From assembly GCA_965285935.1 (NCBI GenBank), contig OZ260665.1, forward strand, positions 59,520,001-59,584,000: 64,000 nucleotides of DNA, given 5' to 3'. Shown one piece after another: positions 27,582 to 63,839 of this stretch. The position numbers and the translations under genes were made by a program. Under the pieces are notes generated by a model that saw only the letters and a program-made list of their open reading frames with translations, did no database searches and was not told the origin of the DNA. Origin of the DNA: Ophelia neglecta. Taxonomy: Eukaryota. Within the stretch, counting starts at the first letter, position 1. Each line of letters starts with the position of its first letter.

Positions 27582-28052
27582 ATACATCTTTCAAATTGGA
27601 CCACAGTAGAGCAAGTGTCAAAGGCTTAGTCGTGGGTCCCAACATGTTTTCATATCTCAAATAGAGCACAGTAGGACAAATAGAATAAGTAGAGGCGTCC
27701 AACAACTGTGTCATATCTCACATAGACTGGGGCGCAGTGTGGCAAGCAGAGTAGGTTGAGACGTAGGGCCCAACCATGGTGTCATAGCTCCCATAGGCTA
27801 GGGCGCAGAAAGTCATGTGACAAAGGCTGAGGCGTGGGCTTCGTGTCATATCTCACATAGACTAGAGTGCAGTAGGGCAAGTAGAATAGGTTGTCACGTA
27901 GGGTCCAACCATGGTGTCATATCTCACATAGGCTAGAGCACTTAAGGTCAAGTGACAACGGCTGAGGCGTGGGGTCCTTCCACCGAATCACATCTCTCAT
28001 AGACTGGAGTGCAGTAGGGAAAGTAGAATAGATAGAGGTGTGGGATCCACCC
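27582..28052. repeat. Minisatellite, about 7 copies of a 61-71 bp unit with two alternating variants
   Basis: Anchor tcatatctcacatag (or variant) at 27650, 27711, 27782, 27846, 27917, 27988; bodies alternate between ...gcaagtagaataggttg...agggtccaaccatggtg and ...gtgacaaaggctgaggcgtggg. Confidence 0.9.
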
Positions 28053-28357: not shown

Positions 28358-28459
28358 ATGATCCTGAATCTGAGCGTCCGCCAGTTTGTTATAACATAGC
28401 CTATCAAGGTCAGGAATCGGGGCGGCAGGATGGAGCAGATACTACTAACTCAATACTCA
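28358..28459 (+). CDS. CACNG5/7-like: Gene A coding exon 2 (102 nt, phase 1-1): second half of extracellular loop 1 with conserved Cys
   Basis: Acceptor cttgtttatacttttag|, donor |gtacgt; encodes DPESERPPVCYNIAYQGQESGRQDGADTTNSIL; final A + GA of the next exon gives R, continuing as RAIRKSS (cf. TARP RAVRASS). Confidence 0.82.
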
Positions 28460-28684: not shown

Positions 28685-28819
28685 GAGCTATTCGAAAGTC
28701 TTCACCAGTGTTAGTGGCCAGTTTGTTTTTTCAAATCACGGCCCTTGCTTTAAGTACTGTTGGAAACACCAAGAAGAATGCCAAAACTCTCGTAGGGGCA
28801 GTGTGTTTCATATCTTCAG
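28685..28819 (+). CDS. CACNG5/7-like: Gene A coding exon 3 (135 nt, phase 1-1): TM2 and start of TM3
   Basis: Acceptor tactgctcag|, donor |gtatgt; encodes AIRKSSPVLVASLFFQITALALSTVGNTKKNAKTLVGAVCFISS. Absent from the ORF track; read by hand. Confidence 0.88.
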
Positions 28820-29028: not shown

Positions 29029-29381
29029 CCCTGATCCTAGCGATAGGCGTTATCTTTTACATATCGGGCGTGAACGACGAGGTGTCACATCGAAAGGAGC
29101 CGAAGGATCCGCAAAATGACAAAGGCAAAACTTTTACATACGAATACGGATGGGCGTTTTTCTTTGCCGGGTCCTCTTTCATGCTGTCGATGATGGCGGC
29201 GGTTTCTAATATATCTCTGTATTTGCGGCGTTATCCCAATCTGGAAGATATGGTTCAAATCATCCCCGGCCTGGACAAACGGGGAGGCTTTGTGAACGTT
29301 TCCGGAACCAGCCGAGCAGTGGAGGAAGAAATGGAGTACAACACGCCGTATGGAGCTCAAAATCCGACCATAATCCTTTGA
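29029..29381 (+). CDS. CACNG5/7-like: Gene A terminal coding exon: TM3 end, loop 2, TM4 and short C-tail
   Basis: Acceptor cttaattttcag|; extends ORF 29070-29381 upstream (LILAIGVIFYISGVNDEV); YISxxNDEVxxR...FxYxYGWxFxFA...L..RY resembles gamma-5/7; TGA at 29379-29381. Confidence 0.92.
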
Positions 29382-33705: not shown

Positions 33706-34388
33706 CTATACCGGGGTGGTGCGGCGCGCGTACGTGTCCAACGTGTCGGCCGAGCCCCTGTGGTCGTGCATCCCGCGATGATCAGCCATGCTCCGATGGT
33801 CTACCAGGGCCCGAGGGTCTACTCCACGATGGTCGACGACCATGGCCCGAGGATCACCCCCGATACGGTGGTCGGCCATGACACGTGGCTCGGACCGGTG
33901 GTGGTGTCCGGGTCCGCCGCCAGGGTGGTCCTTACACGGGTGGGTGTCGGCCGCCGTGCTAATGGTGTGTCGTGAGGGGTCGCGCGTCAGCGTGTAGTTG
34001 GACATCTCCTTCGAGGTGTCCGACACCGGCGTGTAGGTGTAGTACGTGTCTGAGTGTGAGGGCGAATTGTCGCGAGAGTGCTCTCGGGAACGATCGTGCG
34101 AATGAGACCTGGAACGCCGGTATCGTGCTTGAGGCTGGCGCTCGTTAGCGTCCAACATAGTCAGGCGTTCCTGCTTCTTCCGGTAGGCGTGTTTATGTCG
34201 GCTGATGTATAGGTAGACGGAGAGGACCCCCGTCAGCTCCGACACAATGAAAGAGCTTATAGTCATTATGAAAGAGGTGCCGTACGAATACTGGAATTTA
34301 GGCTTGTCCAACGTTGATTTAGGTTTATTTCCCACCTCCTCAGTTATAGCCCCTATGTATAATATAATCCCCACAAGTGTACACAGCC
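33706..34388 (-). CDS. CACNG2-like: Gene B terminal coding exon: TM3 end, loop 2, TM4, RS-rich tail and PDZ-binding motif RRTTPV
   Basis: Acceptor ttttctcgtttcag| (exon starts at 34388); extends ORF 33706-34374; GC-rich; ends RRTTPV-TAG, as in vertebrate type I TARPs. Confidence 0.95.
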
Positions 34389-37300
34389 CTGAAACGAGAA
34401 AACGACGTCATTATTAACAAAATTCCATTGCAAAACTTTCAACAAAGCATGAGTTTGTTTTTGATACATGTTTAATTAAATCCCATCCGCTCATGTCCCC
34501 ACCCTTCTATACCAGCGCAGCCTGAACAACCGCTGTCACAAGCTATGTTTTCTCAATCCGAGCCAGATCGGCCGACGTCTGAATCTAGAATCAAACACAT
34601 CCTATTTGAAAATAACCCCACTGTTTTTCCCTAAAGCATTAGGCTTCTACGAATCATACGCGTCCATTTATTCTTTTGCTGGAGAGGAGATTATATTAAA
34701 CATTGACGCCTCATTCCGACTCCACAGAGGGGACCTTCATGGAATTACTTTGTTTAACGTAACGACCAAAGTATAACTGTTTATAACGTAACAATAAATA
34801 AAGTCCTTGCACAATTATGTCAGGTCTTACAAATCATTACTGAAGCAAATAAATTTAATTATGGCTGATTTTCCATGTTAGACAACATTATACAATATGT
34901 AACTTCCCCCCCCCCCCCCCACTCCGTGACTCAATACAATTCGATGCTTACAAGGGCTGGCGATTGATGTACTGATGTGTGTGCCCGTGGTTTCTGATAA
35001 CTTGGGATCGATTAATGGACTATTCTACATTACTGACTTGGCTTTGTTTGCTAGGTATCCACACCCGTTTTTTCTCCAAAATTGGGCGTTGAGACTGAAC
35101 TGATCCTACTCAGTGTAGGGGAGGGGGCACTTAATATGCTGACTGCCCTGGTACGTTTTTTTTCTGTGATATGAGTACTAGTTTATGATCAAAGCAAATG
35201 TGACCAACAAAAATAAGTGGCTTTTTACTTTTCCTTAAACATCTATGCATAGGCCAAAAATATGTAGTTTAATTAATTGTCCTTGAAAAAGTAAGCCAAT
35301 GTCACATTCGGGGTCATTGGGTTTTCTAAGTTTCTCTCAATGCAATCATGAAATATCTACTAAAATAAAAAATTGGACTTCATTTCTAAGATACCCAAAG
35401 TTAGTTTTGATGTTACAATAGCACACTACTCGTGCCAGAAAAATAGCAATTTCACGCATTCTAAGTCTATGGAGTCACTTTCCCGTTTTTCTCTTCATTT
35501 CTTTAGTCTCATATAGCCAGCAGTACAGCAACCGTGAGCTGAATGTTGCTTATTTCTTTCATGTAATTATGTCACATCGAAAGCATTGGAACTATTCTTT
35601 TCAAACTTTCCAGCCATCAATACCTAACATTAACGAAATAGTTGAGATTTAGCTTACTGGCAAGACTATGCAGATTAATTGATATTTCGTATTGCAGCGG
35701 CGATGGGGTGGCGATAGAGCTTATTAGTTTAAAACTGAAGTGGTTTAACTAACAGCCACCTAACTAGTAAGCATAAATACGATATATAATTATTAGAACA
35801 CCCAATGAAGGGGAATTAGTTTAGGGGCACAGTCAATTGCTGGGATACTGCTGTCTTTGTAAAATAGGGTTTATGGGCAAAATATTGGCTGTGCACTAAG
35901 GTCTACGTTAAACATGTCCGACCAATGTCCCGTCCTCGAAACGCTTGCCGATCCAATTTGCATTACATCAGTTGCCAAGGAAAAATCACACAAGGGACAA
36001 CAAAGCAGTGTGTTCTAACCCTGGATACATCACTACTTAGCTTGACCATTTTGCATGTCACTTGTGGTCACAGGAGTAAATTATTCAAGAAGTTCTCGTC
36101 GTATATACTTCCCTTAAGGTCTTGAACCCTACGAAGACAGGGAGCTAGTAGTAAGACCTAGTTCCCAGCGATCCAATGGGGTTGGAATAAAGGAGCTAGT
36201 AGTATTTCCAACATGTGTTGTTTCCATATGCCGCCTGTTGTTTTCATGATTTGGGCGCTGTATGCGCAGACTATATAGAACCGAATTTCGGATTTGTTTA
36301 AGGCAAGTACTAATTACCTTACTTCATATTATTATCAATGAGAAGTGTTTTATTAATTCGGGGCTGAATAGTCTGTTACTCATAGATTATATTATAATTG
36401 ATTTTCTCGTTGTTTTTCAAATTGATTATACGCAGGTTTGATTATATCATTTCCTTTAGTTTAAACAACATAAATATATAACTTCTTTTTTTCATAGTCG
36501 TGGGTAAAGTTGTATTGCGCAGCCGAACATTCTTATGCAAAATATTAATGTCTACATTAATAGTAGACCTTATAACAAAAAAAATAATAATAATATAATT
36601 GTTCTTAGTAATAATCATAGAATTGCCATTGTTTGGCCAAGTCGAGGTTGTCGACTTCCGTTAGTCTATAAACATTTTTTACTAAGGAGGGGTGAAGTAC
36701 GGCAGGGATATCTATACCCAACGGAGTGGGGATCGGGAGGCAGCCAATCCAAATAGAGACCGAGGGGTCGATTATACCCATGTTGGACAAAGAGGAGCTT
36801 GCCATACATACTCTACCATTCGAAAAACGTGGAGGACAAAACCAACCACAAATACAAAAAAGGATTTTGCAGTTCTTAGAAACTTTCTCTGTTGAAACCA
36901 AACGACAGATATGCCTACTCTTATTCATGAATATATTCTATGCAGGCTAGAAAGGGCGTCTCGTCCGGCTGTAGATCATATTAGCCCTCCCTCAACAACC
37001 ACTTAACATCCCTCCCGAGACCTACAAACACTGGTTGCTTGGACCCCCTTATCGACTGTAAAATGGTTAAAGAACACAAGTATCGGTCCGAAGAGATGCT
37101 TATACGTTTTTATGTCATTTGCAAAAGTTGCCTTACGGCATTGGTATCAACAAACAAGAAAAAAATGTAAAAGGCGTCCGCCGTTATAACGTCTGACGCG
37201 TTGCGTTAATATCAATACCATTTCCAAAGATTGCACTTTGAGATTAATAGTGCAAGTCTCGTCTGCAAACCCTGGCTCCATGTGTGATAAAGAAGAAGCA

Positions 37301-40814: not shown

Positions 40815-40955
40815 CGCCCACAACAAATAAAATGCCCGCCACAAAGGTCATTATCTTTTTCTTATGATTGCAGTGACCTAGAAAGCAGACTATTTCTCCA
40901 ACCAGCAGAATAAGAAGACTTATCAGCGGAAATAACGTTGAACGCCGCATAGATA
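40815..40955 (-). CDS. CACNG2-like: Gene B coding exon 3 (141 nt, phase 1-1): TM2 and TM3 start
   Basis: Acceptor ttctcctttcattccag|, donor |gtgagt; SMRRSTLFPLISLLILLVGEIVCFLGHCNHKKKIMTFVAGILFVVG lies within ORF 40786-40995 and resembles stargazin [22 protein letters not shown]...IILSAGIFFVSAG. Confidence 0.93.
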
Positions 40956-48117: not shown

Positions 48118-48210
48118 ATAATATAGATTCTGTTGGCCCGAGACCATCCCGGTCCATATGTGTGAAGTAATTAATATAGCTGCAGTTTTTCTTTTTATGG
48201 TGTTCTCCTG
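48118..48210 (-). CDS. CACNG2-like: Gene B coding exon 2 (93 nt, or 90 nt from 48207; phase 1-1): extracellular loop 1 with conserved Cys
   Basis: Minus-strand acceptor gcttgcctttcag|(cag), donor |gtaagta; encodes GEHHKKKNCSYINYFTHMDRDGLGPTESIL (C-x-x-I-x-Y/H-F pattern of TARPs); in frame with the next exon. Not in the ORF track. Confidence 0.88.
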
Positions 48211-63695: not shown

Positions 63696-63839
63696 CCGCT
63701 GTACCCGCTGTACCCGCTGTTCCCGCTGTACCCGCTGTACCCGCTGTACCCGCTGTACCCGCTGTATCCGCTGTACCCGCTGTACGCGCTGTACCCGCTG
63801 TACCCGCTGTTCCCGCTGTACCCGCTGTTCCCGCTGTAC
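63696..63839. repeat. 9-bp tandem repeat (CCGCTGTAC) x16
   Basis: 144 bp = 16 units with a few single-base variants (TTC, TAT, GCG); generates the PLY/SGY/QRV repeat ORFs in the track. Confidence 0.97.

Follow-up and report, generated by a model that had tools for sequence, protein, structure and literature searches.

A protostome TARP-A gene of Ophelia neglecta with a putative homolog of the vertebrate type I TARP tail

The cytoplasmic tail of vertebrate type I TARPs combines Arg-rich, Ser-rich and aromatic motifs with a PDZ ligand, according to the accessible text of PMC11343219. In the available portions of four papers (PMC11343219, PMC9122021, PMC4194045, PMC10528344), the Arg stretch binds acidic lipid and PDZ1 of PSD-95, the terminal TTPV binds PDZ2, CaMKII and PKC phosphorylate nine serines, and PKA phosphorylates Thr321. 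Ser-to-Asp mutants in one study, as far as its accessible text goes, showed less PSD-95 binding and lower EPSCs, counter to a simple switch, and the direction of the effect is debated. The vertebrate segment RIPSYRYR binds Arc (available part of bioRxiv 10.1101/2024.08.04.606518). The Arg/Ser and tyrosine blocks of the tail are described, in the text available, as restricted in their conservation to vertebrate type I TARPs.

The protostome TARP-A family was named by Orvis et al. (2022; PMC9282427), who note in the accessible text a common TTPV and binding to DLG. Its section 7 gives TTPV as family-wide and lists AMPA-receptor regulators among the TARP-A proteins, in Apis, Drosophila and C. elegans. 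Elsewhere, C. elegans STG-1 is reported to leave receptor surface expression unaltered. The main text of PMC9282427, in the form accessible, has no matches for phosphoryl, serine, arginine or CaMKII and does not mention the RS block, and the two "phosphoryl" matches in its text supplements, likewise as accessible, both concern CAST. In Ramos-Vicente and Bayes (2020; PMC7653359; available text), PDZ motifs are given for TARPs of invertebrates, and Capitella is credited with six TARPs. The accessible parts of the two papers differ on affinity: in PMC7653359 the majority of invertebrate TARPs fall with type II, at low support, and a loss of type I outside vertebrates is suggested, whereas PMC9282427 links TARP-A to type I and allows for independent splits. 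The TTPV PDZ anchor of TARP-A is already published. A full-text literature search, with some key primary papers outside its reach, brought up no earlier account of these Arg/Ser and tyrosine blocks from an invertebrate, and their conservation across annelids and molluscs may be unreported so far.

The window considered here is the whole stretch of Ophelia neglecta DNA that was analysed, 64,000 nucleotides in length. The original prediction was that positions 34125-33706 encode a near-complete stargazin tail. Minus-strand translation of this interval gives a single open frame that carries all three predicted motifs where they had been placed, and the frame is preceded by a ttcag acceptor at 34389 (minus strand). 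The features of this exon are as follows.

33706..34388, minus strand: TARP-A exon 4, encoding the second half of TM3, ECL2, TM4, the complete 165-aa cytoplasmic tail and the stop
34123..34140, minus strand: RQPQAR, aligned at the position of the vertebrate Arc-binding RIPSYR, with Ser and Tyr lost
34125-34060 (34060..34125), minus strand: RYRRSRSHSHDRSREHSRDNSP by translation, the Arg/Ser-rich block ending SRDNSP, counterpart of the stargazin RS domain in the gamma-2 alignment
34027..34044, minus strand: YYTYTP motif, conserved in annelids and molluscs, opposite the F-N-T-L-P stretch of gamma-2
34008-33976, minus strand: EMSNYTLTRDP by translation, corresponding in the gamma-2 alignment to ExSxYTLxRDP of type I TARPs
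33940..33984, minus strand: R[DE]xSxxT[IV]xT motif, common to annelids, molluscs and arthropod-like TARPs, with no vertebrate match
33757..33924, minus strand: His/Asp/Arg-rich insertion of ~55 aa, with five xxDHR and two DPRA units in the multiple alignment
33726-33706, minus strand: RRTTPV-stop by translation, a class I PDZ ligand with Thr(-2) in a predicted RRxT site

The acceptor of exon 4 is an AG at 34390-34389, in phase 1, and the exon begins with a match to the PMP22_Claudin family (Pfam PF00822, E 1.2e-8), in the second half of TM3 and in TM4. A phmmer search of exon 4 against the PDB matched CACNG chains only, with gamma-2 on top (residues 148-287, E 3e-17). The RS, HSRDxSP and ExSxYTLxRDP blocks are in register with gamma-2 in this alignment, and the stargazin motifs that the original prediction had quoted agree with the gamma-2 chain. 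Going by its sequence, EMSNYTLTRDP is likely one of the type I TARP aromatic motifs. The DHR-rich insertion brings the Ophelia tail to 165 aa (annelid-like median tail 111 aa); no DNA tandem repeat was detected within it, and in a close relative (P0003) the insertion is shorter and DH-rich. Three public assemblies from one sample cover exon 4, and the sole listed difference inside it (33970) is synonymous. Spliced joints were absent from three unlabelled runs of one sample, usable solely as a DNA check.

The remaining exons were located by tblastn and by a search of the 762-Mb genome.

40815..40955, minus strand: TARP-A exon 3, TM2 to mid-TM3, 79% to Capitella by tblastn, AG/GT ends, phase 1
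48118..48210, minus strand: TARP-A exon 2, second half of ECL1, with an alternative in-frame AG 3 bases further in
G000:C8:59614999-59615191, minus strand: TARP-A exon 1, ~31 kb past the window end, from the genome search

Together the four exons encode 369 aa without internal stops, with GT-AG joints and three phase-1 introns. The protein has the hallmarks of the CACNG/TARP family, GLWRKC (the W-LW signature of ECL1) and YSYGTSF (YxYGxSF before TM4), and it ends in the C-terminal TTPV by which TARP-A is recognised; the A and B labels follow our reading of the TTPV criterion in the accessible text of PMC9282427. Its closest named relatives are in Capitella teleta (72%) and Ridgeia piscesae (69%); after these come molluscs, a nemertean and Owenia. 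The nearest rows in the core tree are Lamellibrachia and Capitella, in an annelid node that is itself poorly supported (86/60), and TARP-A is set apart from the TARP-B clade (100/100). By sequence this is an ordinary gene of a named family, protostome TARP-A. These named matches and tree neighbors bear out the supposed invertebrate origin of the DNA, and a vertebrate origin is ruled out by them; an annelid is the most likely host on these grounds.

Tails of this kind can look alike for trivial reasons. RS-rich tracts and x-T-x-V ends are common in proteins, so that low-complexity, R/S-rich tails with a common PDZ ligand might resemble each other by chance or convergence. The single-sequence PDB matches leave some room for this: the tail alone (160 aa) against 177,635 PDB sequences gave 10 matches at E<=10, all of them gamma-2 or gamma-3, but these are weak (best E 0.018, range 0.018-0.2). 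Profile tests were made with tails from which the last six residues, the PDZ ligand, had been removed, and each target was scored against 100 composition-preserving shuffles. With a profile built from 35 vertebrate type I tails the Ophelia tail scored 30.8 bits, and its shuffles -2.4+-2.7 with a maximum of 10.6 (n=100). All shuffles were beaten in 69/74 lophotrochozoan tails and in 3/12 of the remaining divergent tails. Conversely, a profile of 73 lophotrochozoan tails, chosen from 83 complete tails by the YxTYTP-type motif, outscored all shuffles for 34 of the 35 vertebrate tails. These vertebrate rows had been retrieved with exon 4 as the query and so lean towards the Ophelia exon, a bias of which the PDB test is free. 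In the PDB, a profile of 22 lophotrochozoan proteins aligned with gamma-2 and gamma-3 through to their final residue and with gamma-8 as far as residue 319; on full-length gamma-7 (275 aa) the same alignment halts at residue 208. The ordered pattern SR[DE]xS...[ED]xSx[YF]...R[DE], which was written after inspection of the data, occurred in 9 of 100,000 shuffles. Motif order and spacing from TM4 are also kept, and the motifs sit on a homologous four-helix core with an identical last-exon boundary. The failure of the shuffles largely refutes convergence, and chance or convergence as the source of the likeness was rejected as very improbable. Judged by these alignments, the Ophelia tail and the tails of vertebrate type I TARPs are homologous.

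The likeness to stargazin is partial. The 30-mer ending in SRDNSP has 8 Arg, 6 Ser, four RxxS sites and a net charge of +4, and lies 48 aa after TM4; its gamma-2 counterpart has 8 Arg, 9 Ser, four RxxS sites and a net charge of +6, 52 aa after TM4. Medians were taken over tails with the motif only (141/202 invertebrate, 39/43 vertebrate, the oyster rows being redundant) and are 9 Arg, net +6 and 51 aa from TM4 in invertebrates versus 9 Arg, +7 and 52 aa in vertebrates, with 5 versus 9 Ser and 4 versus 5 RxxS. RQPQARYR in Ophelia replaces the vertebrate RIPSYRYR, and PSY/PPY is found in 41/43 vertebrate, 0/28 annelid-like and 1/53 mollusc tails. The set of nine phosphorylatable serines, including S228 in RIPSYR, is absent, with six Ser in the matching 30-mer and RQPQAR in place of the Arc segment. 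Each entry in the type I feature list of PMC11343219 (accessible text), namely the Arg-rich and Ser-rich motifs, the aromatic motifs and the PDZ ligand, is matched by sequence. Thus, of the "near-complete" stargazin tail that had been predicted, the RS, tyrosine and TTPV motifs stand, and the Arc/S228 segment and the full serine number and charge (6 Ser/+4 vs. 9/+6) do not. It had also been claimed that the ectodomain and transmembrane segments are far more divergent than the tail motifs. This did not hold up: core identity is 34-38% over 204 aa to four type I proteins that are complete or almost so, and against six vertebrate rows identity is 52-62% in TM4, 38-48% in a motif block of 50 aa picked by hand and 21-30% over the tail as a whole.

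The fewer serines, the lower charge and the missing Arc/S228 segment count against a type I-like mechanism. An alternative is that only the PDZ anchor works as in vertebrates and that the Arg/Ser block is a constitutive basic patch, acting in membrane or PDZ1 binding and in condensates, not a regulated phospho-switch. Arg count and position are better kept than the Ser count (median 5 vs. 9 Ser), mollusc blocks consist of RS/RD/RE repeats with acidic residues, and the vertebrate Arg motif binds PSD-95 PDZ1 directly (in the text available). However, the four RxxS serines of the Ophelia block equal the number in gamma-2, the medians are close (4 vs. 5), and a CaMKII gene is present in the host genome. 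We regard a purely constitutive patch as rather unlikely.

The tail motifs are widespread. They were counted in database proteins with a recognisable C-terminal end plus nine TARP-B tails, using patterns written after data inspection and tail groups assigned manually on the basis of names and of a 60-aa tree, with most rows unnamed. The ordered set was defined as SR[DE]xS, [ED]xSx[YF], R[DE] and [RK][RK]TTPV. So counted, it is present in 33/43 vertebrate type I, 25/28 annelid-like and 49/53 mollusc-clade tails, Aplysia and Octopus among the latter. Elsewhere it was found in 2/18 arthropod-like, 0/2 hemichordate, 0/7 xKTT[STF]V, 1/56 divergent lophotrochozoan-like and 0/9 TARP-B tails. The [ED]xSx[YF] motif alone occurs in all 43 vertebrate, 27/28 annelid-like and 51/53 mollusc-clade tails, and the protein ends in RRTTPV in 86/122 and in RKTTPV in 11/122 of the collected proteins. 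The ordered tail motifs are typical of annelids and molluscs and often eroded elsewhere; they are not a trait special to Ophelia. The original proposal that the phospho-switch and PSD-95 anchoring are retained in this lineage is supported in part, as far as the motifs are kept; the trait is lophotrochozoan-wide in TARP-A.

Two further motifs distinguish the invertebrate tails. The Y[YF]TYTP-type motif is present in 26/28 annelid-like, 51/53 mollusc-clade and 0/43 vertebrate tails, and R[DE]xSxxT[IV]xT in 24/28 annelid-like, 43/53 mollusc-clade, 15/18 arthropod-like and 0/43 vertebrate tails. Y[YF]TYTP, which had no place in the original prediction, is the best-conserved invertebrate stretch, and both motifs are better conserved than the RS block. 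The invariant columns among invertebrate tails are YTYT, SN and TTPV, and the RS block is loose in sequence. By its sequence, the TP of Y[YF]TYTP could be a site for a proline-directed kinase. An unnamed TARP group ending in xKTT[STF]V (P0138, P0140, P0145, P0159, P0183, P0198, P0213) has an RS-like stretch without SRDxS and ExSxY; our guess is that this group is of echinoderm origin.

A second TARP gene lies in the window, and its short tail (of the 38-aa type) serves as an in-genome negative control for the tail motifs.

28358-28459, plus strand: TARP-B exon 2, for which an acceptor at 28385 also fits
28685-28819, plus strand: TARP-B exon 3, from the gene model
29029..29381, plus strand: TARP-B last exon, with a short tail ending in NPTIIL, no RS block and no TTPV

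Exon 1 of TARP-B (L009) is ~27 kb before the window. The two genes are convergent (tail-to-tail), with stop codons 4,324 bp apart. TARP-B falls in a clade with Lottia, Ostrea and Paralvinella proteins (100/100). Three phase-1 intron positions are common to TARP-A and TARP-B; the four-exon structure was dropped as a type I marker since this neighbor has the identical three introns. Vertebrate type I and type II genes adjoin each other. The TARP-A/TARP-B pair is possibly a relic of the duplication behind the two TARP types. Conserved adjacency of A and B was not shown in the other lophotrochozoans looked at (Ostrea edulis, Saccostrea, Lottia): the two genes are on the same 94.4-Mb sequence in Ostrea edulis, with accessions ~1,750 apart, and on different scaffolds in Saccostrea and Lottia. 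The genome has two further, near-identical CACNG-like last exons (L006, G000:C9:62534749-62534976; L008, G000:C7:22816606-22816854). Two tandem arrays were also noted in the window, one of 9 bp in 16 copies (63696-63839) and one of 135/71 bp in 2-3 copies (27708-28031).

The core of TARP-A is harder to assign than its tail. Type II was assessed through PDB profile searches only, in which the TARP-A profile scored 176.5 bits on gamma-7, 171 on a gamma-5 chimera and 150 on gamma-2 core constructs; the TARP-A tail was matched by type I only. That the transmembrane core scores higher on type II than on gamma-2 counts against our preferred explanation. It is what would be seen if TARP-A were not a type I ortholog and a single ancestral bilaterian TARP had joined a type II-like core to this tail, which type II and TARP-B then lost independently. 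The 26-bit excess of gamma-7 over the gamma-2 core fits this history, most of these proteins are named gamma-5/gamma-7-like in RefSeq, and, in the text available, PMC7653359 has most invertebrate TARPs grouping, at low support, with type II and PMC9282427 leaves independent splits possible. On the other hand, TARP-B has a far stronger preference for gamma-7 (169 vs. 110 bits on gamma-2), as expected if B pairs with type II. Also, vertebrate type I has a long stem in our core tree (1.86), which can account for the score gap of the TARP-A core; our trees were built without type II rows or an outgroup, and five rows were imperfectly cut at the core end. We consider a single ancestor of this kind a credible possibility that falls short of being probable. 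Under either orthology reading the type I tail is, from the sequence comparisons, ancestral to protostomes and vertebrates. A type II-leaning core joined to a type I tail may explain both the published disagreement and the gamma-5/gamma-7-like RefSeq names.

Potential partners of the tail are encoded in the host genome. A DLG gene has an L27 domain and downstream PDZ exons, with PDZ2 at 66.5 bits versus PSD-95, and a CaMKII gene was recognised by its association domain. A search of the host genome for the PDZ_assoc family had no match and is uninformative. Dozens of similar PDZ-domain matches, many with internal stops, cluster at ~4.9-14.4 Mb of G000:C2 and are perhaps an expanded, partly broken gene family.

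We think it likely that the annelid TARP-A tail, homologous to type I tails, anchors AMPA-type receptors to DLG via TTPV, probably aided by the Arg/Ser and tyrosine blocks. By analogy with vertebrate work, the four-helix core would bind an AMPA-type receptor, and TTPV would likely enter the PDZ groove of DLG and thereby anchor the receptor. The Arg-rich block would probably add a contact with acidic lipid or PDZ1. Phosphorylation of the RxxS serines by CaMKII/PKC, and of Thr(-2) by PKA, might tune both contacts; here the case for and against seems about evenly balanced. The tail module would date from the protostome-deuterostome ancestor. Most annelids and molluscs would have kept it, the arthropod-like and hemichordate proteins would show it in eroded form, and TARP-B and vertebrate type II would lack it. 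The STG-1 result in C. elegans and the contested direction of the vertebrate serine switch argue against a simple transfer of the mechanism.

The new point is a modest one: most of the annelids and molluscs sampled also retain the Arg/Ser and tyrosine blocks. It bears on the published dispute over whether type I was lost outside vertebrates (PMC7653359) or is linked to TARP-A (PMC9282427), both as given in their accessible text, in that the tails of Ophelia and other lophotrochozoans show the type I tail, at least, to be ancestral. Work on plasticity in Aplysia and Octopus gains defined Ser/Arg mutation targets for asking whether CaMKII-driven receptor trapping predates vertebrates. In the most far-reaching version, the whole multivalent tail (Arg/Ser switch, aromatic motif and PDZ ligand) would be a pre-vertebrate, CaMKII-controlled trap for AMPA receptors in annelids and molluscs, including Aplysia and Octopus, TARP-A would be the type I ortholog, and the A/B pair would be a relic of the type I/II tandem duplication. 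We put this forward tentatively and hold the full combination to be doubtful.

Among described systems, the vertebrate type I TARPs (gamma-2/stargazin, gamma-3, gamma-4, gamma-8) share with Ophelia TARP-A the colinear RS block, SRDxSP, ExSxYTLxRD and RRTTPV, with 8 Arg and 4 RxxS ~50 aa from TM4. Unlike type I, the Ophelia protein has 6 rather than 9 Ser, a net charge of +4 rather than +6, no PSY Arc site and no clear counterpart of the distal FLQVHN-type block of vertebrate tails; it adds the YYTYTP and RDxSxxT motifs, and its core is merely 34-38% identical. Type II TARPs (gamma-5, gamma-7) are slightly closer in the TM core by profile score, but have no homology in the tail, where the alignment ends at gamma-7 residue 208 of 275. 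TARP-B differs likewise, as none of its nine tails carries any of the tail motifs. The closest likeness is to protostome TARP-A (Aplysia and Octopus TARP-A, Apis and Drosophila STG1, C. elegans STG-1), with which the Ophelia protein shares the four-helix CACNG core and terminal TTPV. Core identity to annelid and mollusc proteins is 53-74%, and the tail motifs are held in common with TARP-A of Capitella, Owenia, Octopus, Aplysia and Mytilus. The sole difference from other protostome TARP-A proteins is the private, ~55-aa DHR-rich insertion of Ophelia.
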